DNA of 64,000 nucleotides from an uncultured Verrucomicrobiae bacterium (lineage in GTDB: Bacteria > Verrucomicrobiota > Verrucomicrobiia > Chthoniobacterales > JAFAMB01), in contig CAVXLD010000005.1 in the NCBI GenBank assembly GCA_963762565.1, forward strand, positions 548,338 through 612,337. The letters run 5' to 3'. Made by a program: the position numbers and the translations under genes. The notes under the pieces are model-generated. The model did not search any database. It had not been told where the DNA came from and saw only the letters and a program-made list of their open reading frames with translations. Below, piece by piece: positions 21,901 to 48,979 of this stretch (positions within the stretch are counted from its first letter, which is position 1; each line of letters starts with the position of its first letter).

Positions 21901-22695
21901 ATGCTATCCTCCCCGAATCACTTGCCGCTTCCTGCGGCTGTCCTCGACGCCGGTCTCCGAGACCGCGAACATCTCCGCCACCTGTTACTTGCGCATCCAT
22001 CAGTGGATCTTAAAGCTGAACTCTCGGCGCTTGCGGAGGTTAGAGAGACCATCGAATCAATTTCTTTGCGCCTTTTGTTCTGCGACCTGGGAGACGATCC
22101 AGCGCAGATCTTCGCTTGGCTCGGCAACAGACCGCCGACCCTGGACGTGATTCTCATGACCAAAGAGGAAAAATGGGCTGCTCGCGCGTTCGAGGTGGAC
22201 GCTTTGGATTTTCTCTTAAAGCCGTTGTCGAAGGAGCAACTGAACCGCAGTCTTCGCCGGTTGTTACGGCTGGACTGGTCCAGCAATGTTAGCGCCGCAC
22301 CGGCGGAGCGAGCGTTTGTGCCTTTCGAACGCGGACGGCGTTTGGTGTCGGTTGATGAAATTTGTGCGATTCAAGCGGTCGGAAATTACACGCGGATTCT
22401 TTTTGCGGACGGCACCACCGAGGTTGCGCTGCGCCCGCTGCGGCGATGGGAGGAGACACTCCCCAAGAATAGCTTTTTGCGGATTCATCGATCAACACTC
22501 GCCAATACCAAGCGCGTGCGGCGGATTGAGATGACCGGGAAAGGTGACGAATGCTGGGCTGAGGTTGACGGCATCACGGAAAGACTTGCCGTCAGCAGGA
22601 GATCTTTGGGGGGGGTTCGCGCGGTTTTGAGTATGACCGAGTCAAAAACGGCTCGATTCGCCTTTAGCGGAGGTCAATTAAGCACGCCGCTTTAG
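21901..22695 (+). CDS. LytR/AlgR family response regulator (atypical receiver + LytTR domain)
   Basis: AFEVDALDFLLKP receiver end; LytTR motifs IQAVGNYTRI, FLRIHRSTLAN, LAVSRR. Confidence 0.9.
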   Translation: MLSSPNHLPLPAAVLDAGLRDREHLRHLLLAHPSVDLKAELSALAEVRETIESISLRLLFCDLGDDPAQIFAWLGNRPPTLDVILMTKEEKWAARAFEVDALDFLLKPLSKEQLNRSLRRLLRLDWSSNVSAAPAERAFVPFERGRRLVSVDEICAIQAVGNYTRILFADGTTEVALRPLRRWEETLPKNSFLRIHRSTLANTKRVRRIEMTGKGDECWAEVDGITERLAVSRRSLGGVRAVLSMTESKTARFAFSGGQLSTPL

Positions 22696-30662: not shown

Positions 30663-30790
30663 GCGCGTCATCTTCGTACTCGGCTCCGGGGACGCGGAGT
30701 GTTGGAGTGATTGAGTACTGGAGTATTGGCGGCCACGTCGGACAAGCCGCTCGTTCCCCGACTTCACCATTCGCTGGGGGAAAGGCGGAA

Positions 30791-31216
30791 ATGGGCGGCA
30801 GGCTACGCTGGACAAGCCGCTCGTTACTTCCGCTGCTGGTCGCCCTAATGCTTTCCGGCTGCCAATGGCCGCAGAGCATGCTCGAGTCCAAAGCGGATGT
30901 GGAAATCGATGTTCCCTCTTCTGATATAACCAGGATTCTTTCCGTCACGAACTACCTTATGCAGCAGAATGGCTATCAAGCCGTTACTGACGCGGCGAAT
31001 CAGGAAGTTCCTTTTGTCGCTGCCCATCTCGCCAGCCGAACTAACCGGGTGCTTTGTTTTTCCAATGGCGGCCGGGATCGAATCTGGATTATCGCTCAAC
31101 CCTCTGGGCATGCTTGGACTTTGTATTGTTTGCCTGAACCCGAACGTGACGACACAAGTTTCGCGCGGCACAGGTTCCGGCAGATCTTACAATCCGTTCG
31201 CGCGGAATGCAGCTAA
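30791..31216 (+). CDS. hypothetical lipoprotein (candidate immunity/accessory protein)
   Basis: lipobox LLVALMLSGC; lies between export operon and precursor array. Confidence 0.6.
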   Translation: MGGRLRWTSRSLLPLLVALMLSGCQWPQSMLESKADVEIDVPSSDITRILSVTNYLMQQNGYQAVTDAANQEVPFVAAHLASRTNRVLCFSNGGRDRIWIIAQPSGHAWTLYCLPEPERDDTSFARHRFRQILQSVRAECS

Positions 31217-31428
31217 CCCCGGGATATAGCAAATAACAAAGCGCAGGTAGCAGGTAGGTGGCCTTTTCCAACAAGAAGAGAGGGCCGTCGCCGCTGGTCA
31301 GGGTTTGAACCGCCGTTCGTCCCAATCAGCTTGTCGGGCGGTTTTCGTCATGGCAATCTGAGTCGAAGCTTCGCCCCCCCCTTCAACTTGGCGCAGTGAG
31401 CAGCAATCAATAGCCGAGAGACACGATC

Positions 31429-31794
31429 ATGACCAAAGAAACCCTTAAGGCATTTGCCGACGCAGTGAGTAAGAGCCAGGAATTACAAAAGCAACTAGCT
31501 TTGATTCATCAGGAGACAGCGCGCTCAACTGCCGAAAAGCTGGCTAAGTTGTCTGAGAGTGCCGGGACGCCTTTTACCGCTGAGGAGTACTTGAACTCGG
31601 TGGCAGAGTCATCAGGGGAGATGTCCACCGAACAATTGCGTAGCGTGGCCGGTGGAGCTAATGAGTTTTGGTGGACATATTTTGAGTCGATTATTCCTGG
31701 TCCTAATATTGGGGTCGACTGCGCTGTCCAGAAAGTCTCGGCCATGTTTGATAGGAGTCTCTCGTTGGGTCCATGTCCCTTAAAAAAATCCTGA
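31429..31794 (+). CDS. Nif11-leader lanthipeptide precursor 1
   Basis: leader ending VAGG; core ANEFWWTYFESIIPGPNIGVDCAVQKVSAMFDRSLSLGPCPLKKS. Confidence 0.9.
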   Translation: MTKETLKAFADAVSKSQELQKQLALIHQETARSTAEKLAKLSESAGTPFTAEEYLNSVAESSGEMSTEQLRSVAGGANEFWWTYFESIIPGPNIGVDCAVQKVSAMFDRSLSLGPCPLKKS

Positions 31795-31951
31795 TTCGAC
31801 CCGCTGCGAAATTGAAGATTACTTAAACGAGAGAAATCAGTTCCGAGCCTCTAACTTTAGCCAACGCTGTCGCCGAACATTGCCGCTCAAGTTGTTGATG
31901 TGAACGACAATCAATTGACTAACAACAATCACTAACACCCGAAGCAAGATC

Positions 31952-32322
31952 ATGAGCCAAGAAAAACTACAGGCCTTCACGGAAGCCGTTAGCAAGAGCG
32001 AACAGCTGCAAACGCGATCCGCTTCGATTCAGATGGAAGGCGTCAAATCAACCGCCGAAAAGGTCGCCAAGTTGTCAGAGAGCGCCGGTACGCCTTTTAC
32101 CGCTGAGGAGTGCTTGAAGTGGGTTGCAGAGTCATCGGAGGAGATGTCCACGGAACAATTGCAGAGTGTGGCCGGTGGTGGAATCTCTTTCTCTGCCGAA
32201 GAGGTCTCAAGTTTATGAACTCGATTATAGGCAGTTTCGGTGGTACCGAATGCGCAGTCACACTGGCTCGTTCGCTCGCAGAAAAGGGTAACCCTTTAGA
32301 GTGTATACAAGTCAGAAAGTAA
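31952..32322 (+). CDS. Nif11-leader precursor 2 (1-nt deletion in core)
   Basis: restoring one G near 32203 gives core GISFSAEEGLKFMNSIIGSFGGTECAVTLARSLAEKGNPLECIQVRK, paralog of 43854. Confidence 0.85.
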
Positions 32323-32496
32323 CCTGATTTCCGACAAATGAACCGCCGCTTGTCAAGGTTTGAACCGCCGCTCGTCCCAATCACGTTGCAGAGAGCTGTT
32401 CGCCACGATAGCTGTCGCCGAACATTGCCGCTCAAGTTGTTGATGTGAGCGACGATCGATTAATTAACAACCATCAATGAGACCCGAAGCAAGATC

Positions 32497-32862
32497 ATGA
32501 GCCAAGAAAAACTACAGGCCTTCGCGGAAGCCGTTAGCAAGAGCGAAGAGCTGCAAAAGCGAGTCGCTTTGATTCAGGCGGAAGCCGCCAAATCGACCGC
32601 CGAAAAGCTCGCCAAGTTGTCTGAGAGTGCCGGTACGCCTTTTACCGCTGAGGAGTACTTGAAGTCAGTGGCGGAGGCATCCGACGAGATGTCTGCGCAA
32701 CAATTGGAGCGAGTGTCCGGTGGAGCTTGGGAGCCGAATAGCAGAAACATTCTTATGTCTATTTTTACTTTGGGCAGCGCCTGTGCCATCTCTGCGCTGG
32801 AATCGGCGATAGGGGGAGATGTCGATAAGTGTCAGATAAAGCCTCTTGGTCGAGGGAGATAA
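32497..32862 (+). CDS. Nif11-leader precursor 3
   Basis: core AWEPNSRNILMSIFTLGSACAISALESAIGGDVDKCQIKPLGRGR. Confidence 0.92.
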   Translation: MSQEKLQAFAEAVSKSEELQKRVALIQAEAAKSTAEKLAKLSESAGTPFTAEEYLKSVAEASDEMSAQQLERVSGGAWEPNSRNILMSIFTLGSACAISALESAIGGDVDKCQIKPLGRGR

Positions 32863-33334
32863 CTGACCGTGCCAGGCGCCCAGGCTGAAGAGTATTTCGA
32901 GAGCGAGGGTCGCGGTTTCCTGCCCTCGGACCACTACCAGCGGCATGCCGGGTGCTCTGGAGTCGATGAACATACCCGGACCGGCTAGTCCGATGGCTTC
33001 CCTCAGAGAGGACTGGCTACCTCGTTCATTGCTCATTCCCTATATGAGGCGGCATAGCAAATAGCAAATTGAGGTTGGCTTCCTCGAACTATTTTCTAAA
33101 CATTTGCCATCGACTTTGCTGTCCTGGATATCTCGCGCACGCTGCAGAAGGACAAGAATCTGCAAGCGTTTTTCCGAAACGGCACGAGATATTCAGGCTA
33201 CATCTGAATCGCCGTTCGTCAGGGTTTGAACCGCCGCTCGTCCCACTCCGGTTGCTGGGCGTTTCTCGCCGCAATAATCTAGCCGCACATCGACACGCAA
33301 TATTGATCATGTGAGCAACAACCATTTAATAAAG

Positions 33335-33422
33335 AACGACCGCCGAAAAGCTCGCCAAGTTGTCCGAGAGTGCCGGTACGCATTTTACCGCCGAGGAGTA
33401 CTTGAAAACGGTGGCAGAGTCC
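33335..33422 (+). pseudogene. internal Nif11 leader fragment
   Basis: TTAEKLAKLSESAGTHFTAEEYLKTVAES without start or core. Confidence 0.75.
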
Positions 33423-33449
33423 ACAATCGATAAAACGAGAAGCAAGATC

Positions 33450-33812
33450 ATGAGCCAAGAAAAACTAAAGGCCTTCGCGGAGGCCGTTACCAAGAGCGAA
33501 GAGCTGCAAAAGCGAGTCGCTTTGATTCAGATGGAAGCGGTCAAATCGACCGCTGAAAAGCTGGCAAAGTTGTCCGAGAGTGCCGGTACGCCTTTTACCG
33601 CTGAAGAGTACCTACGGTCAGTTGCGGAGTCGTCAGAGCAGCTTTCCACGGAACAATTGCGTAGTGTGGCCGGTGGTGGAGACAACCTTATTGACGACAC
33701 ATTTGGCGAAATTCTGCTTTCGGCTTTAAAAGGTTTTAGTAACAACTGCGTAATTGACGCGGCTCGTTCGATCGTAGATCCTAAGCCCGGCTTCGGGTGT
33801 TTATTCCCTTAA
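33450..33812 (+). CDS. Nif11-leader precursor 4
   Basis: core GDNLIDDTFGEILLSALKGFSNNCVIDAARSIVDPKPGFGCLFP. Confidence 0.92.
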   Translation: MSQEKLKAFAEAVTKSEELQKRVALIQMEAVKSTAEKLAKLSESAGTPFTAEEYLRSVAESSEQLSTEQLRSVAGGGDNLIDDTFGEILLSALKGFSNNCVIDAARSIVDPKPGFGCLFP

Positions 33813-33869
33813 TGACTGTTGGCTAACGACACCAACATGGGGGCGCGAGGTTCGGCTCAGGTTGCCATC

Positions 33870-34079
33870 GTGATTTGCTGCCTCGAGAAGCAGCTCGATT
33901 CGGCCGCATCGGCCACAGCACAGATGGCTTGCCGGGAAATTTGGTCCCGCCGTGGCGTCGCCCACTGCAGCCTGTATTTCCTCTCGAACCTCAGGCGTCC
34001 CACCGCCGAACTGGGCCAGTCTGCCAAGACCGATACCTGCCGGACCTGCACACCACCCGTACATGAACGCTTTCTGGCC
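33870..34079 (-). pseudogene. inverted fragment of a lanM paralog (cyclase WCxG..CCG region)
   Basis: 70 codons, 59 identical to LanM residues encoded at 48563-48772. Confidence 0.88.
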
Positions 34080-34375
34080 TTGCTCGCCGATAAGTGTCAA
34101 TAGGGACATGAAATTAGCCTGCAGACTCATGTCCCCTGTCGGTATGGCCAGTGCGATCACGCGGTGAGTCAGACAGATGCCAGTTTTGCGCTGGCAGAAC
34201 GCCTCAATGCCCACATCTGAGCCGCCGCTTGTCAGGGTTTGGACCGCCGCTCGTCCCAATCAGGTTGCTGGGAGCAGTTCGTCACGGTAGATATGACCGA
34301 ACATTGCCGCCCAAGTTGTTGATGTGAGCGATAATCAATTTATTAACAACCATCAATAAGACCCGAAGCAAGATC

Positions 34376-34729
34376 ATGAGCCAAGAAAAACTCCAGGCCT
34401 TCGCGGAGGCCGTTAGCAAGAGCGAAGAGCTGCAAAAGCGATTCAATTCGATTCAGGTGGAAGCCGCCAGAACGACCGCTGAAAAGCTGGCCAAGTTGTC
34501 TGAGAGCGCCGGCACGCCTTTTACCGCTGAGGAGTACTTGAATTCAGTGGCAGAGTCATCAGAGGAGATGTCCGCGCAACAATTGCATAGCGTGGCCGGT
34601 GGAGTTTGGGAGCCTTCGTTCGGCAACATTTTTACCTCTATCATGAGTGTAGGGTTAGGGTGCGCAATCGCGGCGGCCGGTTCGGCCATAGAGCGGGGAG
34701 GCGTTGATAACTGCCAAATTAAGTTTTAA
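34376..34729 (+). CDS. Nif11-leader precursor 5
   Basis: core VWEPSFGNIFTSIMSVGLGCAIAAAGSAIERGGVDNCQIKF. Confidence 0.92.
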   Translation: MSQEKLQAFAEAVSKSEELQKRFNSIQVEAARTTAEKLAKLSESAGTPFTAEEYLNSVAESSEEMSAQQLHSVAGGVWEPSFGNIFTSIMSVGLGCAIAAAGSAIERGGVDNCQIKF

Positions 34730-34942
34730 AGGACAGCAGGCAGATGCCAGTTTTGCGTTGGCAGGACGCCTCAATGGCTACATCTGAGCTGCCGCTTGTC
34801 AGGGTTTGGACCGCCGCTCGTCCCAATGAGGTTGCCGGGAGCAGTTCGTCACGGTAGATGTGGCCGAACATTGCCGCCCAAGTTGTTGATGTGAGCGATA
34901 GTCAATTTATTAACGACCATCAATAAGACCCGAAGCAAGATC

Positions 34943-35284
34943 ATGAGCCAAGAAAAACTCCAGGCCTTCGCGGAGGCCGTTAGCAAGAGCGAAGAGCTGC
35001 AAAAGCGAGTCGCTTTGATTCAGATGGAAGCGGTCAAATCGACCGCTGAAAAGGTCGCCAAGTTGTCAGAGAGTGCCGGCACGCCTTTTACCGCTGAGGA
35101 GTACTTGAAATCGGTGGCAGAGTCATCAGAGGAGATGTCCACGGGACAATTGCGTAGCGTGGCCGGTGGAGCCTACGAATTTGCGGACTTTGTCAAGACG
35201 CTTGCTATGGAGGGCGGGTGCGTGTTGCAAGCGATTTCGGCCATAGCACGGATTTCCAAAGAAGGCCCCAAACTCCCCTGTTGA
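34943..35284 (+). CDS. Nif11-leader precursor 6
   Basis: core AYEFADFVKTLAMEGGCVLQAISAIARISKEGPKLPC. Confidence 0.92.
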   Translation: MSQEKLQAFAEAVSKSEELQKRVALIQMEAVKSTAEKVAKLSESAGTPFTAEEYLKSVAESSEEMSTGQLRSVAGGAYEFADFVKTLAMEGGCVLQAISAIARISKEGPKLPC

Positions 35285-35360
35285 TACGGCCAGTGCGATC
35301 ACGCGGTGAGTCAGACAGATGCCGGTTTTGCGCTGGCCGAACGCCTCAATGGCCACATCT

Positions 35361-35434
35361 GAACCGCCGCTTGTCAGGGTTTGAACCGCCGCTCGTCCTA
35401 ATCAGGTTGCCTGCGCAGCTAGCCACGGTAATCT
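35361..35434 (+). promoter_or_regulatory. representative LytTR-type promoter: GAACCGCCGCTTGTC-N7-GAACCGCCGCTCGTC, then TTGCCT-16-TAATCT
   Basis: 22-bp period direct repeat (35361, 35383) directly upstream of sigma70-like -35/-10 hexamers. Confidence 0.7.
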
Positions 35435-35496
35435 AGCCCGATTTGGTCGCCCCAAGTGGGCGATGCGAGCAGAGTTAATAGACGAAAGACACCATC

Positions 35497-35856
35497 ATGA
35501 GCAGACAAACCCTTACGGCATTTGCCGAGGCAGTGAGTAAGAGCCAGGAATTACAAAAGCAATTGGCTTCGATTCATCAGGAAATAGCTCAGTCAAGAGC
35601 AGAGAAGCTGGCCGAGCTATCCGAGAGTGCCGGTACCCCGTTTACTGCTGAAGAGTACCTACGGTCAGTTGCGGAGTCGTCAGAGCAGCTTTCCGCGGAA
35701 CAATTGCACACAGTAGCCGGCGGAGTGTGGGAACCGTCGTTTGAGAATGTTTTCACGTCTTTAATCATGCTTGGCGTAGGTTGTGCCGGGGCTGCGATAG
35801 CCTCGGCAGCACAAGGGAACGTGGACAAATGCCAACCTGAAAAATGGCCGACTTAA
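35497..35856 (+). CDS. Nif11-leader precursor 7
   Basis: core VWEPSFENVFTSLIMLGVGCAGAAIASAAQGNVDKCQPEKWPT. Confidence 0.92.
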   Translation: MSRQTLTAFAEAVSKSQELQKQLASIHQEIAQSRAEKLAELSESAGTPFTAEEYLRSVAESSEQLSAEQLHTVAGGVWEPSFENVFTSLIMLGVGCAGAAIASAAQGNVDKCQPEKWPT

Positions 35857-35901
35857 ACAAACTATCAATTAACAACAATTAATAAGACGAGAGACAAGAT
35901 C

Positions 35902-36258
35902 GTGAGCCAAGAAAAACTCCAGGCCTTCGCGGAGGCTGTTAGCAGGAGCGAAGAGCTACAAAAGCGATTCGCTTCGATTCACGCGGAAGCCGCCAAGTCA
36001 ACCGCTGAAAAGCTCGCCAAGTTGTCTGAGAGTGCCGGTACCCCCTTTACTGCTGAAGAGTACCTACGGTCAGTTGCGGAGTCGTCAGAGCAGCTTTCCG
36101 CGGAACAATTGCATACAGTAGCCGGCGGAGTGTGGGAACCGACGGCGGACAATATTGTGCTCTCTACGTTAACCTTTGGCATAGCTTGTTGGGGAGCAGC
36201 GGTGCTCTCGGCACTATCGAAAGGGGACCCTGACAAATGCCAAATTGCGAAGCGCTAG
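35902..36258 (+). CDS. Nif11-leader precursor 8
   Basis: core VWEPTADNIVLSTLTFGIACWGAAVLSALSKGDPDKCQIAKR. Confidence 0.92.
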   Translation: MSQEKLQAFAEAVSRSEELQKRFASIHAEAAKSTAEKLAKLSESAGTPFTAEEYLRSVAESSEQLSAEQLHTVAGGVWEPTADNIVLSTLTFGIACWGAAVLSALSKGDPDKCQIAKR

Positions 36259-36308
36259 ACTTGAACAAACTATCGGTTAAAAACAATTAATAGACGAAAG
36301 ACACCATC

Positions 36309-36683
36309 ATGAGCAAACAGACCTTTACGGCATTTGCCGAGGCAGTGAGTAAGAGCCAGGAATTACAAAAACAATTGGCTTTGATTCAGCAGGAAATAGC
36401 TCAGTCAAGAGCAGAGAAGCTGGCCGAGTTATCCGAGAGTGCCGGTACCCCCTTTACGGCTGAAGAGTACCTACGGTCAGTTGCAGAGTCGTCAGAGCAG
36501 CTTTCCGCGGAACAATTGCATACAGTAGCTGGCGGAGTGTGGGAACCGTCGCCTAAGAATATTGTCGGCTCTATATTCATGCTTGGCATAGGTTGTGGCA
36601 TAGCTGCGGCGATCTCGGCAGGAAAAGGGGACGTCGACCAATGCCAACTTGGATCAGGTCCGATGGGTGGCGCCCCTACTTGA
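36309..36683 (+). CDS. Nif11-leader precursor 9
   Basis: core VWEPSPKNIVGSIFMLGIGCGIAAAISAGKGDVDQCQLGSGPMGGAPT. Confidence 0.92.
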   Translation: MSKQTFTAFAEAVSKSQELQKQLALIQQEIAQSRAEKLAELSESAGTPFTAEEYLRSVAESSEQLSAEQLHTVAGGVWEPSPKNIVGSIFMLGIGCGIAAAISAGKGDVDQCQLGSGPMGGAPT

Positions 36684-36761
36684 TTACAGGGCCGAAGTAA
36701 ATAGCCCCAGACGTGAACAAACTATCAATTAACAACAATTAATAAGACGACAGGCAAGAAC

Positions 36762-36800
36762 ATGAGCCAAGAGAAACTCCAGGCCCTCGCGGAGGCTGCC
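36762..36800 (+). pseudogene. truncated precursor start
   Basis: MSQEKLQALAEAA interrupted by an inverted cassette. Confidence 0.75.
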
Positions 36801-36959
36801 ATTGCGAGAAACGCCCGGCAACCGGATTGGGACGAGCGCCAGCCCAAACCCTGACAAGCAGCGATTTGAAGCTAGCCCTTGAAGAGGTCCGCCAGGGGAG
36901 AGTTGCCACCGCCTTAAATACCGCCCATGCTTCCGCCTGGGCGTTACAGGGTGTCAGCG

Positions 36960-37307
36960 CTAACTAGTTGGGTCACATGAGGGGTCGTTTCCTCCCAGCA
37001 CGGCCGAACCTATCGCAACGGCAAAACAGCCAACAGCGAAAGAGGCAAATGAAATGGCTATCGCCACCCCAATGTTAACGCCACCGGACACATTCCGCAA
37101 TTGGTCCGCTGACAACTCCGGTGAAGACTCTGCCACTGACTGCAAGTACTCCTCGGCAGTAAAGGGTGTACCTGCACGCTCGGACAACTTCGCTATCTGC
37201 TCGGCTGTCGATCTCGCAACTTCCACTTGAACCGAAACCAATCGTTTTTGTAGCTCTTCGCTCTTGCTAACCGCTTCGGCAAAGGCTTGTAGCTTTTCTT
37301 CGTTCAT
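36960..37307 (-). CDS. Nif11-leader precursor 10 (inverted, divergent)
   Basis: core VNIGVAIAISFASFAVGCFAVAIGSAVLGGNDPSCDPTS. Confidence 0.92.
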   Translation of the reverse strand: MNEEKLQAFAEAVSKSEELQKRLVSVQVEVARSTAEQIAKLSERAGTPFTAEEYLQSVAESSPELSADQLRNVSGGVNIGVAIAISFASFAVGCFAVAIGSAVLGGNDPSCDPTS

Positions 37308-37504
37308 AATCGGGTTGTTTATCGTTTGTTCTGATTGTTGCTCACATTACCAACTTTTGGCGGCGATGTGAGGCGAGATTACGATGACGAAAAACGCCTG
37401 GCAATCTGATTGGGACGAGCGGCGGTTGAAACCCTGACAAACGGCGACGCAGATGTAGCCCTTAAAGAGGTCTGCCAGCGGAAAGCTAATATCGCCCAAT
37501 GCTG

Positions 37505-37576
37505 GTTGCGGAGTCGTCAGAGCAGCTTTCCGCGGAACAATTGCATACAGTTGCCGGCGGAGAAGGGAAACCGACG
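37505..37576 (+). pseudogene. leader 3' fragment
   Basis: VAESSEQLSAEQLHTVAGGEGKPT fused to the next cassette. Confidence 0.75.
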
Positions 37577-37754
37577 TACCAGTTTTGCGCTGGCAGAACG
37601 CCTCAATGGCTACATCTAGGCCGCCGCTCGTCAGGGTTTGAACCGCCGCTCGTCCCAATCAGGTTGCCTGCGCAGTTAGCTAGAGTAATCTAGGCCGATT
37701 CTGGTCGCCCCGAGTGGGCGATGCGAGCAGAGTTAATAGGCGAAAGGCACCATC

Positions 37755-38117
37755 ATGAGCAAAAAAACCCTTACGGCATTTGCCGAGGCAGTGAGTAAGA
37801 GCCAGGAATTACAAAAACAATTGGCTTTGATTCAGCCGGAAATAGCTCAGTCAAGAGCAGAGAAGCTGGCCGAGCTATCCGAGAGTGCCGGTACCCCCTT
37901 TACTGCTGAAGAGTACCTACGGTCAGTTGCGGAGTCGTCAGAGCAGCTTTCCGCGGAACAATTGCATACAGTAGCCGGCGGAGTGTGGGAACCGACGGCG
38001 GAGAATATTCTGGCCTCTATATTCTTCATTGGGCTAGGTTGTGCCATGGCTGCGGGACTCTCGGCAGGAAACAAAGGGGACGTGGACAAATGCCAATTTA
38101 CTGGTCGGATGTGGTAA
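37755..38117 (+). CDS. Nif11-leader precursor 11
   Basis: core VWEPTAENILASIFFIGLGCAMAAGLSAGNKGDVDKCQFTGRMW. Confidence 0.92.
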   Translation: MSKKTLTAFAEAVSKSQELQKQLALIQPEIAQSRAEKLAELSESAGTPFTAEEYLRSVAESSEQLSAEQLHTVAGGVWEPTAENILASIFFIGLGCAMAAGLSAGNKGDVDKCQFTGRMW

Positions 38118-38211
38118 CCGCCCTTCGGCTTGATTACAGGGCCGAAGTAAATGGCCCCAGACTTAAACAAACTATCAATTAACAACAATTAATAAGACGA
38201 GAGACAAGATC

Positions 38212-38586
38212 ATGAGCCAAGAAAAATTCCAGGCCTTCGCGGAGGCTGTTAGCAAGAGCGAAGAGCTGCAAAAGCGATTCGCTTCGATTCAGGTGGAAGC
38301 CGCCAAGTCGACCGCCGAAAAGCTCGCCAAGTTGTCCAAGAGCGCCGGTACACCCTTTACGGCTGAGGAGTATCTACGGTCAGTTGCAGAGTCGTCAGAG
38401 CAGCTTTCGGCGGAACAATTGCATACAGTAGCCGGCGGAGTGTGGGAACCGACGGCTGGGAATATTTTGGGCTCTATATTCACCATTGGCATAGGTTGTG
38501 CCGCGGCGGTGGCAGTCTCGGCGGCATTCGAAGGGGACGTGGACAAATGCCAACTTGGAAAAGGGCCCGTGACTACGGGCGGCTAA
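38212..38586 (+). CDS. Nif11-leader precursor 12
   Basis: core VWEPTAGNILGSIFTIGIGCAAAVAVSAAFEGDVDKCQLGKGPVTTGG. Confidence 0.92.
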   Translation: MSQEKFQAFAEAVSKSEELQKRFASIQVEAAKSTAEKLAKLSKSAGTPFTAEEYLRSVAESSEQLSAEQLHTVAGGVWEPTAGNILGSIFTIGIGCAAAVAVSAAFEGDVDKCQLGKGPVTTGG

Positions 38587-38813
38587 TGCAATTCTCGGAT
38601 GTAAGCCTTAGATGTAACCAGTTTTGCGTTGGCAGAACGCCTCAATGGCCACATTAGAGCCGCCGCTTGTCAGGGTTTGGACCGCCGCTCGTCCCAATCA
38701 GGTTGCCGAGAGCTGTTCGCCACGATAGATGTCGCCGAACATCGCCGCCCAAGTTGTTGATGTGAGCGACAATCAATTAACTAACCACCAGCAATAAGAG
38801 TCGAAGCAAGATC

Positions 38814-39170
38814 ATGAGCCAAGAAAAACTACAGGCCTTCGCGGAAGCCGTTAGCAAAAGCGGAGAGTTGCAAAAGCGATTTAATTCGATTCAGATGGAA
38901 GCCGCCAGATCGACCGCCGAAAAGCTAGCCAAGTTGTCCGAGAGTGCCGGGACGCCTTTTACCGCTGAGGAGTACTTGAAATCGGTTGCAGAGTCAGCAG
39001 AGGAGATGTCCACAGAACAATTGCATAGTGTGGCCGGTGGAGTTTGGGAGGCGAATTTTAAAAACATTTTTGACTCAATTATTAGTGCTGGCATCGCGTG
39101 CATAATCCACGCGGCTGTCTCGGCAGGACATCTGGGCGACGTGGATAAGTGTCAACCTTCAAGATCTTGA
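38814..39170 (+). CDS. Nif11-leader precursor 13
   Basis: core VWEANFKNIFDSIISAGIACIIHAAVSAGHLGDVDKCQPSRS. Confidence 0.92.
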   Translation: MSQEKLQAFAEAVSKSGELQKRFNSIQMEAARSTAEKLAKLSESAGTPFTAEEYLKSVAESAEEMSTEQLHSVAGGVWEANFKNIFDSIISAGIACIIHAAVSAGHLGDVDKCQPSRS

Positions 39171-39264
39171 TTCGACTCAGCGCGAAATCGAGATTTTTCG
39201 AACGAGAGAAACCTGTTCCGAGTCTCCAACGTTAACCAACGATTGATAAACGAGGGAGCAACCC

Positions 39265-39482
39265 TCGAGCACAGAAAAACTTCAGGCCTTCGCGGAGGCT
39301 GTTAGCAAGGGCGAAGAGCTACAAAACAATATATTTCGATTCAAGTCGAAATAGCCAGATCGACCGTCGAAAAGCTCGCCGAGTTGTCAGAGAGTTCCGG
39401 TACGCCCTTTTACCGCTCAGGAGTACTTGAATTCAGTGGCAAAGTCATCAGAGGAGGTGTCCACAGAACAATTGCGTAGTGC
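39265..39482 (+). pseudogene. decayed Nif11 leader (no start, indels, core deleted)
   Basis: STEKLQAFAEAVSKGEELQ...STEQLRS joined directly to next cassette. Confidence 0.8.
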
Positions 39483-39664
39483 GACACGGGCACTTTTGCG
39501 CTGGCCGAACGCCTCAATGGCCACATCTGAACCGCCGCTTGTCAGGGTTTGGACCGCCGCTCGTCCCAATCACGTTGCCTGCGCGGTTAGCCACGGTAAT
39601 CTAGCCGTATTTCGTCGCCCCAAGTGGGCGATGCGACAGCAATTAATAGATGAGAGACAAGAAC

Positions 39665-39982
39665 ATGAGCCAAGAAAAACTAAAGGCCTTCGCGGAGGCT
39701 GTTAGCAAGAGCGAAGGGCTGCAAAAGCGATTCGCTTCGATTCAGGTGGAAGCGGCCAAATCGATCGCTGAAAAGCTGGCCAAGTTGTCCGAGAGTGCCG
39801 GTACGCCTTTTACCGCTGACGAGTACTTGCACTCGGTGGCAGAGTCATCAGAGGAAATGTCCGCGCAACAGTTGCAGAGCGTGGCGGGTGGAGTTTTTTT
39901 GGAGCAGTCGCCGGTCGAAAACATCCTGACCTCTACCTTTGAGCAGGTCGCTGGTGATTACCAATTCAAGAGTTGCGGATAG
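39665..39982 (+). CDS. Nif11-leader precursor 14 (short, single-Cys core)
   Basis: core VFLEQSPVENILTSTFEQVAGDYQFKSCG. Confidence 0.85.
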   Translation: MSQEKLKAFAEAVSKSEGLQKRFASIQVEAAKSIAEKLAKLSESAGTPFTADEYLHSVAESSEEMSAQQLQSVAGGVFLEQSPVENILTSTFEQVAGDYQFKSCG

Positions 39983-40133
39983 AATAATCCCTTAACGATG
40001 AGCGAGCCGCAGCAGCCGCACGATGATTTCAACTAGGGTCACGTCTTAACGGGCTGTTGCCGAAATGGATCATTACCCGGCAAGATCACAAAGTTCACAA
40101 AGACGGACTTTTTGAACAGAAGTTCTGTCGACC

Positions 40134-40637
40134 TTACTTTTGTTCCAGAAGCGGCAGTATCTCGGACTCGAAAACCCCCTGGCTCACGGCGCCTAGATGA
40201 GACGTGACGATGTTACCTTTGCGATCGAGGACAAAGGTTACCGGGACGGCGGTGACACCTCCATAATCGGCTGCGGTTTTTTCGTGGCCAAGTACGACCG
40301 GATAATTAATTCCGACCTGCATCACAAATGGCTTCACATCAGACGCTTCAGTCTCCACAGAAATACCTATCACGGTCAATCCTTGGGCAGCATACTTTTT
40401 CTGCAGTGCAATAAATCCTGGGATCTCCACTCGGCACGGCGGGCACCAGAACGCCCAAAAATCTAAAATCACAACTCTCCCTTTAAAGTCGGAAAGCTTC
40501 ACAGTTTTGCCGTCGAGATCATTTAGTTGCCACTCTGGAGCTTGGGTTGTGGCTGCGTTTGCCCGGTATAGCGGGCCCTCGAACAAAAGGATTCCGGCGA
40601 CCGCAACGCCAATAGAGAGATAAAAATTCCTGCTCAT
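40134..40637 (-). CDS. TlpA/ResA family thiol-disulfide redoxin
   Basis: signal peptide, LSDFKGRVVILDFWAFWCPPC, VPVTFVLDRKG. Confidence 0.9.
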   Translation of the reverse strand: MSRNFYLSIGVAVAGILLFEGPLYRANAATTQAPEWQLNDLDGKTVKLSDFKGRVVILDFWAFWCPPCRVEIPGFIALQKKYAAQGLTVIGISVETEASDVKPFVMQVGINYPVVLGHEKTAADYGGVTAVPVTFVLDRKGNIVTSHLGAVSQGVFESEILPLLEQK

Positions 40638-40904
40638 AAACGGATAGCAGTTTTATAGCCTATAGAACCATGCTGCGCACCAATTATTCCCACGACACCC
40701 ACTCTAAAAACCTCGAACAATGAAGGGTCCGTTGATCATTTGTTGTGGAACCCTAGTTTCTTCGCCTTCTTTAAATCACAGGAAGCCGCTTTACCGTCGC
40801 CAAGCACATGATAGGCATAGCCTCGACTGTGGTAAGCTCGGTCCAGGTCCGATTTGAGTCGAACGGCTTCGGTGTAATATCGGCAATGGCCCTTTCGTAC
40901 TGTC

Positions 40905-41774
40905 TCAGAATGAATCGCTCTTGACGGCGAGTCCGATGGGTCCGGGCAGCCCTTTGATGAAGCTGGGGCTAATCGCGGCTCCGGTGGTGGCGTCGTATTT
41001 GCCAACCGTGCCGACGAATTCGTTCGCCACGAAGAGGATGTTGCCCGACACCGCGAATCCTTCGGGTCCGGGCAGCCCTGTGATGAAGTTGGGGCTAATC
41101 GCGGCTCCGGTGGTGGCGTCGTATTCGCCAACCGTGTTGTCTGCGTTCGCCACGAAGAGGATGTTGCCCGACACCGCGAGTCCGACGGGTCCGGGCAGCC
41201 CTTTGATGAAGCTGGGGCTAATCGCGGCTCCGGTGGTGGCGTCGTATTTGCCAACCTTTTTGCCTGCGTTCGCCACGAAGAGGATGTTGCCCGACACCGC
41301 GAGTCCTTCGGGTATGCTCAGCCCTGTGATGAAGTTGGCGTTAATCGCGGCTCCGGTGGTAGCCTCGTATTTGCCAACCGTGTTGCCTGCGTTCGCCACG
41401 AAGAGGATGTTGTCCAACACCGCGAGTCCGATGGGTCCGGGCAGCCCTGTGATGAAGCTGGGGCTAATCGCGGCCCCGGTGGTGGCGTCGTATTTGCCAA
41501 CCTTGTTGCCTGCGTTCGCCACGAAGAGGGTGTTGCCCGACACCACGAGTCCTTGGGGTATGCTCAGCCCGGTGATGAAGCTGGCGTTAATCGCGGCTCC
41601 CGTTTTGGCGTCATATTTGCCCACGACCCCAATGAGTGGGCTTCCAGCAAACCCGGTGACATACAGCTGTGCGCAGGCGTTTCTTGGCATGGCCCAAAGC
41701 GCGGCAGCGGCGATAAGAAATGCGTATAAAGCGCGCAAAAGGGGCCCCCAATTTGAGGTGAGGGTTGTCTTCAT
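40905..41774 (-). CDS. secreted tandem-repeat (beta-propeller-like) protein
   Basis: signal peptide then six 41-aa repeats GKYDATTGAAISPSFITGLPGPxGLAVSGNILFVANAGNTV. Confidence 0.8.
   Translation of the reverse strand: MKTTLTSNWGPLLRALYAFLIAAAALWAMPRNACAQLYVTGFAGSPLIGVVGKYDAKTGAAINASFITGLSIPQGLVVSGNTLFVANAGNKVGKYDATTGAAISPSFITGLPGPIGLAVLDNILFVANAGNTVGKYEATTGAAINANFITGLSIPEGLAVSGNILFVANAGKKVGKYDATTGAAISPSFIKGLPGPVGLAVSGNILFVANADNTVGEYDATTGAAISPNFITGLPGPEGFAVSGNILFVANEFVGTVGKYDATTGAAISPSFIKGLPGPIGLAVKSDSF
40921..41620. repeat. 123-bp coding tandem repeat, six units
   Basis: unit anchors at 40981, 41107, 41230, 41353, 41476, 41599. Confidence 0.9.
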
Positions 41775-42189
41775 GGCTTTGTTCTGTCTTGGTTCAGCGT
41801 GAAAGTGAAAAGTCGGTGCTTGGCCGCCCGGCTGAGCAGATCAATTGTCGAATCGCGTACACATTCAACCAGCGGAGTATTGCCGATGAGCGAGAGAATC
41901 GCCTGGTTTTTTAGGGGAGTTGCTTGGAGGGCGCCGGAACCCATGTAATGAGTTTCCAGCCGGGACACAAGCTGTGTCAAGCAAGATAGTTCAAGGTTCA
42001 AAGTTCGACGTTCCAAGTTCCAGGCTACATTTGAGTCGCCGCTTGTCAGGGTTTGGACCGCCGCTCGTCCCAATCAGGTTGCCGAGAGCTGTTCGCCACG
42101 GTAGATGTCGCCGAACATCGCCGCCCAAGTTGTTGATGTGAGCGACAATCAATTAACTAACCACCATCAGTAAGACTCGAAGCAAGATC

Positions 42190-42549
42190 ATGAGCCAAGA
42201 AAAACTACAGGCCTTCGCGAAAGCCGTTAGCAAGAGCGAAGAGTTGCAAAAGCAATATCTTTCGATTCAAGTCGAAATAGCCAAATCGAGCGCCGAAAAG
42301 CTCGCCAAGTTGTCAGAGAGCGCCGGGACGCCTTTTACCGCTGAGGAGTACTTGAACTCGGTGGCAGAGTCATCAGAGGAGATGTCCACAGAGCAATTGC
42401 ATCGTGTGGCCGGAGGACTTTCCGCAGCGGAAGAAATTTATATTGCGTCGTCTATATTGACTGCGGGCATGACTTGTTGGGTTAAGGCGATCGTGTCGGC
42501 CTCAACTCAGGGTGGCGCCGAAAAATGTGTTGAATTACCCGGACTTTAG
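42190..42549 (+). CDS. Nif11-leader precursor 15
   Basis: core LSAAEEIYIASSILTAGMTCWVKAIVSASTQGGAEKCVELPGL. Confidence 0.92.
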   Translation: MSQEKLQAFAKAVSKSEELQKQYLSIQVEIAKSSAEKLAKLSESAGTPFTAEEYLNSVAESSEEMSTEQLHRVAGGLSAAEEIYIASSILTAGMTCWVKAIVSASTQGGAEKCVELPGL

Positions 42550-42775
42550 CAACTTCAACCCGCTACTCAGGTGTAGTTTTCGAGCAAGTAACAAATGGCA
42601 CTATTCCGGTACTCCAATAATCCGTCACCCTGTTTTTGCGTGATGAGATGGAGGGCGAAACGCCTCATGAAATGGAGGGATTGCCTGCGTGTCTAGGACC
42701 CCAGCTGACTGCCGAAATCCGACGTTGCCCCCTCTCCCCCTTTAGCTATGTCGGACAAGTTTGGAGGACAACCCC

Positions 42776-42871
42776 ATGAGGCGACCTAACTTCCAACAAC
42801 AGAAGACCCATCGCGAGGTTTGCGGCGATGCCAGTTTTGCGTTGGCAAAACGCCTCGATGGCGACATCTGA
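42776..42871 (+). pseudogene. internally deleted mini-NHLP ORF (31 aa)
   Basis: GGAGG RBS; MRRPNFQQQKTHREVCGDASFALAKRLDGDI joins the NHLP N-terminus to its C-terminus. Confidence 0.7.
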
Positions 42872-43023
42872 GTCGCCGCTTGTCAGGGTTTGGACCGCCG
42901 CTCGTCCCAATCAGGTTGCCGGGAGTTTTTCGCGACGGTAATTTCGCTGAACATTGCCGCCCAAGTTGTCGAGATGAACGACAATCAATTAATTAACAAC
43001 AATCAAAGACGAGAAACAAGATC

Positions 43024-43380
43024 ATGAGCACAGAAAAACTCCAAGCCTTCGCGGAAGCTGTTGGCAAGAGCGAAGAGCTGCAAAAGCGCGTGGCTTCGAT
43101 TCAGGCGGAATCCGCCAGAACGACCGCCGAAAAGCTCGCCAAGTTGTCCGAGAGTGCCGGTACGCCTTTTACCGCTGAGGAGTACTTGCACTCGGTGTTA
43201 GAGTCATCGGAGGGGATGTCCGCGCAACAATTGCATAGCGTGGCCGGTGGAGTTTGGGACCCGTCGGCCACGAACATTGTCACCTCTATCTTTTCTGCAG
43301 GCATAGTGTGCGGACTCTTTGCGACCGCTTCAGCCATTGGGAAGGGAGACGCTGATCAGTGCCAAGTTAAGATGGGATAA
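43024..43380 (+). CDS. Nif11-leader precursor 16
   Basis: core VWDPSATNIVTSIFSAGIVCGLFATASAIGKGDADQCQVKMG. Confidence 0.92.
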   Translation: MSTEKLQAFAEAVGKSEELQKRVASIQAESARTTAEKLAKLSESAGTPFTAEEYLHSVLESSEGMSAQQLHSVAGGVWDPSATNIVTSIFSAGIVCGLFATASAIGKGDADQCQVKMG

Positions 43381-43603
43381 GTGCCAAGTTAAGATTTAAG
43401 TAAAGACAGCACTACCCGCGCAGTTAGCAACTTCAACCCGCTACTCGGATGCAATTCGAGCAAGTAACAAATGGCAGTACTCCGGTACTCCAAGAATCCC
43501 TTACTCTGCTTTTGTATGATGAGACGGCGACGAAGCACCTGATGAACTGGAGGGATTGCGTCTCCAGGACCCCAGTTGACTGTCGAAATTGGAGGACAAC
43601 CCC

Positions 43604-43698
43604 ATGAGGCGACCTAACTTCCAACAACAGAAGACCCATCGCGAGGTTTGCGGCGATGCCAGTTTTGCGTTGGCAAACGCCTCGATGGCTACATCTGA
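43604..43698 (+). pseudogene. second mini-NHLP copy (1-nt deletion)
   Basis: near-identical to 42776-42871, one A shorter near 43675. Confidence 0.65.
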
Positions 43699-43853
43699 GT
43701 CGCCGCTTGTCAGGGTTTGGACCGCCGCTCGTCCCAATCAGGTTGCTGAGAGCTGTTTGCCAGGATAGCCGTCGCCGAACATTGCCGCCCAAGTTGTTGA
43801 TGTGAGCGACAATCAATTAACTAACAACCATCAATAAGACCAGAAGCAAGATC

Positions 43854-44225
43854 ATGAGCCAAGAAAAACTGCAGGCCTTCGTAGAAGTCGTTAGCAAGAG
43901 CGAAGAGTTGCAAAAGCGATTCAATTTGATTCAGATGGAAGCGGTCAAATCGACCGCTGAAAAGCTGGCCAAGTTGTCCGAGAGTGCCGGTACGCCTTTT
44001 ACCGCTGAGGAGTACTTGAAGTCGGTGGCAGAGTCATTAGAGGAGATGTCCACGGAACAATTGCGTAGTGTGGCCGGTGGTGAATTCTCTCTCTCTGCTG
44101 ATGAGGGTCTCAAGTTTATGAACTCGATTATAGGTAGTTTCGGTGGTAGCCAATGCGTAGTCACGCTGATTCATTCGCTCGCAGAAAAGGGCAACCCTTT
44201 AGAGTGTATACCAGTTAGAAAGTAA
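43854..44225 (+). CDS. Nif11-leader precursor 17
   Basis: core EFSLSADEGLKFMNSIIGSFGGSQCVVTLIHSLAEKGNPLECIPVRK. Confidence 0.92.
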   Translation: MSQEKLQAFVEVVSKSEELQKRFNLIQMEAVKSTAEKLAKLSESAGTPFTAEEYLKSVAESLEEMSTEQLRSVAGGEFSLSADEGLKFMNSIIGSFGGSQCVVTLIHSLAEKGNPLECIPVRK

Positions 44226-44253
44226 CCTGATAAATAAGACCCGAAGAAGGATC

Positions 44254-44360
44254 ATGAGCCAAGAAAAACTCCAGGCCTTTGCGGAAGCTGTTCGCAAGAG
44301 CGAAGCGTTGCGAAAACGATTCGCTTCGATTCAGTAGGAGGCCGCCGAAAAGCTCGCCAC
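44254..44360 (+). pseudogene. truncated precursor with in-frame stop
   Basis: MSQEKLQAFAEAVRKSEALRKRFASIQ* fused to next cassette. Confidence 0.8.
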
Positions 44361-44527
44361 GGCCACATCTGAACCGCCGCTTGTCAAGGTTTGGACCGCC
44401 GCTCGTCCCAATCAGGTTGCCGAGAGCTGTTCGCCACGATAGATGTCGCCGAACATTGCCCCTCAAGTTGTTGGTGTGAGCGACGATTAATTAAGTAACA
44501 ATCATCAATAAGACCGGAAGCAAGATC

Positions 44528-44884
44528 ATGAGCCAAGAAAAACTACAGGCCTTCGCGGAAGCTGTTAGCAAGAGCGAAGAGCTGCAAAAGCGATTCAATT
44601 CGATTCAGGTGGAAGCGGCCCGAACAACCGCTGAAAAGCTGGCCAAGTTGTCTGAGAGCGCCGGTACGCCTTTTACCGCTGAGGAGTACTTGAATTCGGT
44701 GGCAGAGTCATCAGAGGAGATGTCCGCGCAACAGTTGCATGGCGTGGCCGGTGGAGTTTGGGACCCGTCGTCCCATAACATCTTAGTCTCTATCGGTACT
44801 TTAGGCTTAGGGTGTGCACTCAAGGCGATCATTTCAGCCGCGGAGGGAGACGTTGATAAGTGCCAAATGAAGCGGCCAACTTAA
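44528..44884 (+). CDS. Nif11-leader precursor 18
   Basis: core VWDPSSHNILVSIGTLGLGCALKAIISAAEGDVDKCQMKRPT. Confidence 0.92.
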   Translation: MSQEKLQAFAEAVSKSEELQKRFNSIQVEAARTTAEKLAKLSESAGTPFTAEEYLNSVAESSEEMSAQQLHGVAGGVWDPSSHNILVSIGTLGLGCALKAIISAAEGDVDKCQMKRPT

Positions 44885-44979
44885 GTAAAGGCAGCATTAG
44901 CCGCGTAGCGGACTGCCGAAATCCGACGTCGCCCCATCTCCCCCTTTAGCTATGTCGGACAAGTTTGGAGGACTACCCC

Positions 44980-45285
44980 ATGAGGCAACCTAACTTCCAA
45001 CAAATGACCCGTCGCGAGATCGAAGATTACATGATCGAAAGAAGCTTAGTAGATCCAGAGTTTCGTGCTCGTCTGATCGAAAATCCACGTGAGACGGTAT
45101 CTGGGCTCGGGTTGCCGGTGGGCGCAGACGTCAAGATTCAAGTATTGGTAGAAGAACCCGACTCGTTCTGCATCGTACTGCCGCGAGTCCTGCGGGAGTC
45201 GCATGAACTCCCTGCGGAAGCTTTGAGCGATATAGCCGGTGGCGGCAGCTTTCCTCTGGCAGATCTTTTCAAGGGTTACATCTAA
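44980..45285 (+). CDS. NHLP (nitrile hydratase-like leader) precursor peptide
   Basis: TRREIE..IERSLVDPEFRARLIENPR..IQVLVEE..IVLP..EL..EALSDIAGG; 13-aa core GSFPLADLFKGYI. Confidence 0.9.
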   Translation: MRQPNFQQMTRREIEDYMIERSLVDPEFRARLIENPRETVSGLGLPVGADVKIQVLVEEPDSFCIVLPRVLRESHELPAEALSDIAGGGSFPLADLFKGYI

Positions 45286-45339
45286 GTCTTAGATCCGAAA
45301 ATTAGATCTGCAGTTCCGAAATGCACGAGAAGTAAGATC

Positions 45340-45681
45340 ATGAGCAAAGAAAAACTCCAGGCCTTCGCCGAGGCGGTTAGTAGAAGCGAAGAGCTACAAA
45401 AACGATTGGCTGAAATTCAGGTGGAAACCGCTAGGTTGACAGCCGAGAAGATGGCCAAGTTGTCTGAGAGCGCTGGTATCCCCTTCACCGCAGAGGAGTA
45501 TTTGAAGTTGGTGGCAGAGTCATCAGTGGAGATGTCAGCAGAACAATTGCAGAGCGTGGCCGGTGGAAAAGCTGGGGAATCAGCTGTCAGAGAGACTACT
45601 TACCCTTGGGAACCAGGGTGTAACAATACGCGCGTTACGGTTTTGCAGGGAGTTGAGTGTTTGCCGAAACCGGCGCTGTAA
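45340..45681 (+). CDS. Nif11-leader precursor 19
   Basis: core KAGESAVRETTYPWEPGCNNTRVTVLQGVECLPKPAL. Confidence 0.9.
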   Translation: MSKEKLQAFAEAVSRSEELQKRLAEIQVETARLTAEKMAKLSESAGIPFTAEEYLKLVAESSVEMSAEQLQSVAGGKAGESAVRETTYPWEPGCNNTRVTVLQGVECLPKPAL

Positions 45682-45765
45682 ATTGCCGACAAGTCCGACC
45701 TCGTTAGCAGCGATTCTGCCTAAACCGAACTTCGTCGCCCAAATGGGCGCTGTGAGCAGCAATCA

Positions 45766-48700: not shown

Positions 48701-48979
48701 ATTTTCCCGGCAGGTCATCTGTGTTGTGGCCGATGCGGACGGATAGAACTGCTTCTCGAGGCGGCCAATCGTCTCACCGACAATACACTGCGAGATGCAG
48801 CGGTCTCCCAGGCGATACTGCTCGAATCGCAGGCTCAGGAATCAGGATTTTATGCGCTAAACGGAGCCGATCGCGGCCGGCTGTTTGCGCCTTCTTTTTT
48901 TCAGGGCACTTCCGGCATAGGCTATACATTTCTCCGGATACTGAACCCTCAATTACCTTCCGTTCTATCGTTAGGCTAG
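45766..48979 (+). CDS. lanM: class II lanthipeptide synthetase LanM, CCG (ProcM-like) type; one frameshift near 46250
   Basis: dehydratase GDSH, LVYKPR, TDLHQENVIA, IDLETLF; cyclase DLYGG, GFGHGAAG, WCTG, LCCG, FFQGTSGIGY; about 1070 codons when joined. Confidence 0.95.

Follow-up and report, generated by a model that had tools for sequence, protein, structure and literature searches.

The window analysed here is a stretch of 64,000 nucleotides from an uncultured Verrucomicrobiae bacterium (G000:C5:548338-612337; positions below are counted within the window), and it holds a peptide cluster with a LytTR regulator, an exporter, a precursor array, an NHLP-leader open reading frame (ORF) and a LanM synthetase. 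Most of the precursor genes have their own copy of a short non-coding cassette, which is very probably an operator joined to a promoter. We think it likely that each cassette combines a LytTR operator with a weak sigma-70-type promoter and is activated by the regulator of the cluster itself, encoded at 21901. The genome comprises 6,117,778 bases (~6.1 Mb) in 15 contigs, and the named relatives belong to the order Chthoniobacterales.

Fifteen cassettes were found where an earlier note on this DNA had placed them, the period of the direct repeat being exactly 22 bp in 15/15; GCCGTTCGTC occurs at 31312 and 33211, as that note said. The layout is a 9-bp box, 13 bp, a second 9-bp box, 9 bp, a TTG-type hexamer, 16 or 17 bp and a weak -10 element, and the box, CCGCT[T/C]GTC, is a variant of the AlgR core CCGTTCGTC (PMC4064291). 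In the following list, extended box 1 starts at the first coordinate of the 13 plus-strand copies and at the last coordinate (36865 and 37448) of the two minus-strand copies, promoters are given as hexamer, spacing and -10 element, and "relic" stands for an NHLP-tail relic.

31287..31359, plus strand: cassette 1, TTGTCG-17-CAATCT, before precursor 31429
32342..32414, plus strand: cassette 2, TTGCAG-17-TAGCTG, before precursor 32497
33208..33280, plus strand: cassette 3, TTGCTG-17-TAATCT, before a leader fragment and precursor 33450
34221..34293, plus strand: cassette 4, TTGCTG-17-TAGATA, before precursor 34376, relic in front
34788..34860, plus strand: cassette 5, TTGCCG-17-TAGATG, before precursor 34943, relic in front
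35363..35434, plus strand: cassette 6, TTGCCT-16-TAATCT, before precursor 35497 and then cassette-less 35902 and 36309, relic in front
36793..36865, minus strand: cassette 7, orphan, both boxes mutated and 3' part replaced, relic in front
37376..37448, minus strand: cassette 8, TTGCCA-17-TAATCT, before minus-strand precursor 37307-36960, relic matching the intact NHLP core
37620..37691, plus strand: cassette 9, TTGCCT-16-TAATCT, before precursor 37755 and then cassette-less 38212, relic in front
38659..38731, plus strand: cassette 10, TTGCCG-17-TAGATG, before precursor 38814, relic in front
39531..39602, plus strand: cassette 11, TTGCCT-16-TAATCT, before precursor 39665, relic in front
42035..42107, plus strand: cassette 12, TTGCCG-17-TAGATG, before precursor 42190
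42872..42944, plus strand: cassette 13, TTGCCG-17-TAATTT, before precursor 43024, abutted by a deleted NHLP copy
43699..43771, plus strand: cassette 14, TTGCTG-17-TAGCCG, before precursor 43854, relic in front
44373..44445, plus strand: cassette 15, TTGCCG-17-TAGATG, before precursor 44528

The 9 + 13 + 9 geometry is kept in 15/15 copies and fits LytTR direct repeats of ~9 bp lying 10-13 bp apart, while the distance from box 2 to the TTG, 9 bp in 15/15, fits the placement of LytTR operators ~4-11 bp above the -35. LytTR repeats have been described as 9 bp long, 11-13 bp apart and biased to 10 bp above the -35 (PMC6193735), and the canonical LytTR pair as 9-bp repeats spaced 10-13 bp (PMC11347149). 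Some details of the earlier description had to be narrowed. Its N7 spacer is present but nearly invariant (AGGGTTT in 13 copies, AAGGTTT in 2); all 15 hexamers begin with TTG, but only 9/15 have the form TTGCC(G/T); and TA is found at 16 or 17 bp in 13/15 copies, in the proposed form TA(G/A)(A/T) in 11/15.

The statement that most precursors have a cassette of their own was borne out: 14/19 full-leader ORFs do, and 14/15 cassettes lead into Nif11-leader precursors, precursor 33450 being reached across the intervening leader fragment. The cassette-less full-leader ORFs are 31952 (truncated core), 35902, 36309, 38212 and 45340. The cassette at 36865 on the minus strand has no gene downstream and is the most degenerate copy.

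All 6,117,778 bases were searched with a two-box weight matrix built from these same 15 copies, which scored 31.9-46.0 against 14.9 for the next site, so that no copy lies elsewhere in the genome. This bears on the extremely unlikely alternative that the cassette is a structured RNA, a miniature inverted-repeat transposable element (MITE) or repetitive extragenic palindrome (REP), or an integron-like recombination site. A MITE/REP was rejected, as 15/15 copies lie within 13 kb and show no dispersal. For an RNA, the block allows a 12-pair fold of -6.08 kcal/mol, but only 1/12 pairs compensates and 122/500 shuffles do equally well in the covariation check that the earlier note had proposed; the covariation term is -0.05, Rfam gives no match up to E 1, and relatives keep 148/300 pair cells. 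A tyrosine recombinase gene does lie 11 kb upstream, but this integrase abuts a tRNA-Lys 3' remnant, like island integrases.

Comparison with relatives points to the operator-promoter as well. Related precursors were found in 6/400 genomes of the order by a precursor search, and in four of these six (G060, G102, G126 and G134) LytTR, NHLP gene, precursors and LanM occur together; in those four genomes the window-built matrix located pairs of period 22 upstream of precursor units and either upstream or downstream of the NHLP gene. The core CCGYTYRTC was set from those relatives and then applied to loci fetched afterwards. Eight loci outside the motif definition contain 15 pairs at period 22, one at period 21 and none at other periods between 12 and 35. 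Over the 11 module loci (175,346 bases) there are 23 pairs at period 22 and at most 2 at any other period, whereas the 66 other LytTR loci (1,059,325 bases) have none at period 22; these counts exclude L156 and L163, which have no pair at up to 2 mismatches, and, from both sets, the frameshifted copies L185 and L196. With at most one mismatch, the same core gives 14 pairs at period 22 in the genome of the window, and no other period from 12 to 35 yields more than 4.

A perfect pair is present in 16/400 genomes of the order, and the reversed-pattern control gave 1/401. This LytTR, at 40% identity or more, occurs in 7/400 genomes, with perfect pairs in 4/7 and one-mismatch pairs at the cluster in 3/7; the other 12 perfect-pair genomes comprise one with the module on short contigs, two with tandem repeats and nine with single pairs and no detected module. 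A metagenome scan with a loose pattern found at least two loci, L060 and L077, with Nif11 leaders among the 120 matches listed, and both have the same block and spacer as the window. At 25 relative sites picked by their boxes alone (a profile that omits L161, a near twin of L158), the bases after box 2 are biased to T at +10 (24 sites), G at +12 (19), A at +34 (18) and T at +38 (16), with a background of 20-30%, which is the pattern of a predicted -35/17/-10 promoter. Spacer identity among relatives is 0.35, and a central T bias at 14 and 12 of the 25 sites may reflect bending.

The best candidate for the binding protein is the following gene product.

21901..22695, plus strand: LytTR response regulator with an atypical receiver (PF04397, E 1.9e-13; PF00072 under cut-off)

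It very likely binds the cassette and probably activates it, activation being the likelier mode because the boxes do not touch the -35. The claim that the 21901 protein activates most precursors is borne out in part: comparative evidence supports LytTR-type operators above the -35 and 21901 as their best candidate binder, and activation by it is probable. FLRIHRS in this protein corresponds to the FhRhHRS motif of LytTR domains (PMC4227749). Its structural model has a predicted local distance difference test (pLDDT) value of 78; the best fold match is ComE (4cbv), and the AgrA LytTR domain was also matched, while a PDB sequence search with the single protein matched a receiver domain only. In the tree it falls in a clade of 16/30 rows (100/99), the nearest neighbours of which include canonical regulators beside MASE1 kinases. 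Canonical receivers have an acid pair, an Asp, a Thr or Ser and a Lys. The 21901 receiver keeps D16, D62, T87 and K107 and lacks the second acid (the acid pair, L-D-A-G, is incomplete), and because of this incomplete receiver we are unsure whether the regulator is activated by phosphorylation. We found no cognate membrane histidine kinase in the cluster of the window. When the LytTR and NHLP proteins were modelled as a complex, the score was 0.21, with the mark at 0.32, and the prediction was not used as evidence.

Just upstream of the LytTR start, at 21854-21871, lies a palindrome, TTGACA-N6-TGTCAA, a perfect -35 overlapped by what may be the operator of another regulator. In a 50%-identity group (L153:10722, L154:10710) a box pair falls within the last codons of the LytTR gene, and in the protein tails (P0012-P0030) the pair is seen as A-(V/A)-R-P and R-S-S.

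Several observations weigh against a LytTR-activated promoter as we propose it. None of the 15 promoters reaches the 9-of-12 threshold of a generic sigma-70 scan, and the T at the last -10 position is absent in 7/15 copies. A scan for weak pairs in this genome found none before the regulator gene (L157 has one), none upstream of the exporter at 22701..30662 and none directly before the NHLP gene of the window. At residue 62, the position of the phospho-Asp, 20/28 aligned relatives have Asp, most of them together with a broken acid pair, and 8/28 have Glu; of the five LytTR genes in the genome, 21901 alone is without an adjacent kinase, the other four each being beside a LytS-type kinase. The window spacer (0.91) matches the boxes in conservation, and binding by itself would not account for this. 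Outside the window, L156 has the regulator and no pair on its 8-kb contig, and the nine perfect single pairs in genomes with no detected module are unexplained. The same core is found at period 21 in 4/11 and at period 22 in 1/11 MASE1-kinase/canonical-LytTR loci, and one of this genome's own canonical loci (L018:1961) has a weak core with 2 mismatches at period 21. Finally, related genomes and sites are not independent, and the comparative figures are counts and not tests.

As this core is also found beside canonical LytTR loci, there may be cross-talk or another binder. The boxes may then be LytTR operators all the same, with 21901 acting as an anti-activator or as one of two binders and a kinase-coupled canonical LytTR activating, an alternative that we regard as improbable. 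Its arguments are the degenerate 21901 receiver, the MASE1 kinase and canonical LytTR near the module in L156, L160 and L162 (an orthologue is found in four module genomes), the canonical regulators as nearest tree group (96/89, an open fork) with the same core beside them, and the precedent of BlpS, described as a LytTR anti-activator that binds such sites (PMC8545106). Against it, the boxes do not overlap the -35, of the five MASE1-kinase loci that have a pair, four show period 21, unlike the period of 22 at module sites, and the MASE1 orthologue, present in seven genomes without detected module, was not found in G000, G060 and G102. The spacing (21 versus 22) may separate the canonical and module systems. 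In L296, L297, L301 and L302 a period-21 core lies 3' of canonical kinase-LytTR pairs, with a TTG-type hexamer 9 bp on.

If the cluster regulator is the activator, a dimer of it would bind the two boxes two helical turns apart, bend the DNA and recruit RNA polymerase, so that 14 precursor units would be switched on together from separate promoters, and the cassette-less precursors, the NHLP gene and lanM would be read through from an upstream cassette. The earlier note further proposed that sequence drift among the copies tunes the ratio of the peptides. The box 2 core, identical in 13/15 copies, speaks against this, but the box 1 core is identical in 10/15 only and the gene-linked -10 elements are divided, seven having xAxxxT and seven not, so that per-copy output could differ; adaptive tuning by operator drift seems to us unlikely.

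The origin of the copies can be followed in what precedes them. Ten cassettes are preceded in frame by an NHLP-core relic that ends at box 1, and three more keep the last codons only; before 37620, for instance, the relic reads SFALAERLNGYI-stop, compared with SFPLADLFKGYI-stop in the intact NHLP gene. One copy of the gene retains more.

42776..42871, plus strand: 31-codon internally deleted NHLP gene copy, the stop of which abuts cassette 13

A frameshifted twin of this copy starts at 43604, where the close-relative contig L060 has an undeleted NHLP start (first 48 codons). In L028 the order is LytTR, NHLP, pair, precursors, LanM, the pair following the NHLP stop as in the window, and this order of NHLP gene, operator and precursor is likely ancestral. 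Because NHLP 3'-end relics stand in front of the boxes, we infer that the cassettes arose by repeated duplication of an NHLP-tail/operator/precursor unit. These relics, and the conserved pairing of LytTR with NHLP, are additions to what the earlier note described.

Duplication raises the question whether all the operators matter. Conceivably one or a few of them work and the others are tandem-duplication passengers kept alike by recombination. Useless NHLP relics were co-duplicated, the spacer is frozen in the window though free in relatives, the array has many fragments and a split lanM, and a scan for terminator-like sites found few terminators between units. Segment identities are also mosaic: over 13 units (cassettes 33208 and 36865 excluded; pairwise values without p-value), rho between identity upstream and downstream of the block is 0.02-0.05, against 0.52-0.67 for promoter versus leader and ~0 for core versus the rest. 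We nevertheless consider this very unlikely. The two boxes are 0.92 and 0.97 identical, against 0.595 at the neutral four-fold sites of the co-duplicated leaders, and the block is also above its flanks; the decayed copy is the one without a gene; a separate promoter is required for the inverted precursor 37307 and for the units beyond the 40.1-41.8 kb insert; and in L024 separate pairs with unrelated spacers stand before individual precursors. With operators that work individually, we infer that their conservation reflects selection plus crossing-over inside the ~47-bp operator block, the latter accounting for the frozen spacer. The block appears to be a site of crossing-over, by which promoters, leaders and cores are brought into new combinations.

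The intact NHLP gene, from which the relics are recognised, is a candidate for the signal.

44980..45285, plus strand: NHLP-leader gene with a short Cys-free core after GG (GSFPLADLFKGYI); TIGR03793 over cut-off

In the window it is under the operator only by read-through from the cassette at 44373. No terminator-like site was found on the plus strand from 44373 to 45766, and transcription from cassette 15 probably extends over the NHLP gene, precursor 45340 and lanM. Among 11 subfamily loci, the NHLP gene lies directly behind the regulator in eight, with a pair in front in 8/8, and in one locus a displaced NHLP gene, 19 kb off, keeps its own pair. An alignment of 32 NHLP sequences has G99 and Y100 in every row and F97 in nearly every row, giving an F-x-G-Y end; the cores have 11-16 residues, Cys is found in one only (terminal), and one sequence is without GG. 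In L158, L159 and L161 the exporter, the regulator and the NHLP gene are present, and the fetched DNA gave no match to LanM or Nif11; in L158 and L159, pairs stand before a ~1000-residue protein without Pfam family, near type II secretion genes.

Typical pheromones are ComC and BlpC, which the short, nearly Cys-free NHLP cores resemble, and apart from the absent kinase the arrangement of genes is that of Com/Blp pheromone circuits. That the NHLP gene belongs to the regulon, and that its short core, cleaved after GG and exported by the C39 transporter, is an autoinducer that would act through a sensor, has in our estimate slightly less than an even chance. As a universal sensor the MASE1 kinase was not supported, no orthologue having been detected in the three genomes named above; it was found in 11/371 genomes, four with the module and seven with none detected. 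A phylum-wide search with the NHLP protein gave 4/400 weak, leader-only matches, and a protein atlas search gave only leads below 0.9. We tentatively suggest that Chthoniobacterales have a quorum-sensing circuit of their own, with an NHLP pheromone of strain-variable N-terminus and fixed F-x-G-Y end, NHLP/TolC export, an orphan and possibly phosphorylation-independent LytTR, and an operator that in the present genome doubles as crossover site. Equally tentatively, what the 22-bp operator of such a circuit controls would differ between genomes: lanthipeptide libraries in part of them, and elsewhere large secreted proteins along with genes for type II secretion.

The ~1000-residue family, secreted-looking and with a 22-bp pair upstream, comprises L155:2284-5199, L157:3113-6085, L158:1948-4995, L159:11293-14520 and L160:6616-9591, often near type II secretion genes. 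The two members scanned (L158, L159) have no Pfam match, in a scan of neighbours that left out 2 ORFs of L022/L028 and ~60 of 106 neighbour ORFs. Its YDVSN-type motif is, we presume, reminiscent of thaumatin-like glucanases.

The remaining components of the cluster are these.

22701..30662, plus strand: NHLP/Nif11 peptide exporter with HlyD, C39-peptidase ABC1, ABC2 and TolC (TIGR03794, TIGR03796 and TIGR03797 over cut-off; PF02321)
30788..31216, plus strand: lipoprotein-like ORF of no known family, a possible immunity protein
31429..45681, both strands: Nif11-leader array of 19 full-leader ORFs, with a 76-residue leader ending in GG
45766..48979, plus strand: LanM, class II lanthipeptide synthetase, split in two frames (TIGR03897 over cut-off)

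Two single CCGCTCGTT boxes, 70 bp apart, are found at 30747 and 30817, by the lipoprotein-like ORF. The array is a candidate for a large library of antimicrobial peptides. In it, 17/19 cores have exactly 2 Cys and 3-8 Ser/Thr. Leader fragments occur at 33342, 36762, 37505, 39268, 44254 and 49204-49401, the last being a decayed precursor leader on the minus strand, 3' of lanM. In most cores the two Cys are ~15-16 residues apart and flank a hydrophobic stretch, and a TlpA-like thiol-disulfide oxidoreductase gene (40134-40637) is inserted within the array; given these two features, the products may be closed by disulfides besides lanthionine bridges. Also inserted in the array, at 40905-41774, is a gene for a secreted-looking protein with 41-residue (123-bp) repeats, the start of which adjoins a cassette in L077 too.

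The frame of lanM changes near a C5A6 run (~46245-46256), and a single frame covers both parts in L024; the change may be a real break, phase variation or an assembly error. The lanM leader region (45720-45766) and the untranslated part of cassette 31287 have their last ~40 bases in common, hinting at a common origin. The integrase mentioned above lies at 19.5-20.8 kb, in a split tyrosine recombinase gene (19483-20990) that adjoins the tRNA-Lys(CTT) 3' remnant; tRNA-Lys remnants lie also at C5:449524 and C5:480288, which points to islands in tandem at the tRNA of C5:398885. At 17407-18728 there is a DUF6088/AbiEii pair.

A LytTR promoter for each gene is in itself a known design, because in S. 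dentisani 7746 a near-identical LytTR promoter, conserved over ~120 bp, precedes each of six bacteriocin units (PMC12943804). The streptococcal Blp system (pheromone BlpC, exporter BlpAB, BlpH/BlpR, BlpS), as far as its accounts in PMC12943804 and, for S. gallolyticus, PMC8545106 go, likewise has two 9-bp repeats per unit promoter, GG-leader peptides, a C39 exporter and a thioredoxin-like gene in the array. The present cluster differs in its Gram-negative host from the Verrucomicrobiota, in Nif11-leader precursors with LanM, in a TolC-coupled NHLP exporter, in an AlgR-like box with a 13-bp spacer, in having no kinase in the cluster and an atypical receiver, and in a signal candidate with an 88-residue NHLP leader.

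The P. aeruginosa AlgR site CCGTTCGTC and its variants CCGTTTGTC and CCGTTCATC, in the excerpted text of PMC4064291, match the boxes of relatives, and the window boxes differ from them mostly at position 4. AlgR works with a kinase, and its sites need not be direct repeats at a set spacing, whereas the pairs here are strictly of 22 bp. LytTR regulatory systems (LRS; HdrRM and BrsRM), in the portion of PMC6193735 available, share the 9-bp repeats 11-13 bp apart and ~10 bp above the -35, and kinase-free bacteriocin control. Their regulator is paired with a membrane inhibitor and autoregulates; in the present cluster the receiver is kept and no inhibitor was identified, the gene after 21901 being HlyD here and NHLP in relatives, not an LRS-type membrane inhibitor. 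Prochlorosin-type Nif11/LanM libraries also have many variable-core Nif11 precursors, one LanM and diversity by recombination (PMC10783134). In the part of that survey available, regulators are named only as possibilities and the word "promoter" is absent, whereas here there is an operator per precursor, with two-Cys cores. In the open-access literature searched, subscription journals and supplements being outside its scope, we found no paper joining NHLP and LytTR, none joining three of LytTR, direct repeat, lanthipeptide and Nif11, and only streptococcal papers on LytTR-linked peptide pheromones.

How many-precursor Nif11/LanM libraries are switched on is a matter of speculation in the available text of the prochlorosin survey (PMC10783134). 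The present locus offers a defined operator, a candidate regulator and a candidate inducer of 12-13 residues, and by its motif the regulon can be traced in further soil Verrucomicrobiota. Should the pheromone idea prove wrong, a well-supported regulon of a familiar kind in a new phylum would be left. If it is true, a Gram-negative, kinase-free pheromone-LytTR system would be a new signalling design, and the NHLP transporter family would have a role in signalling.

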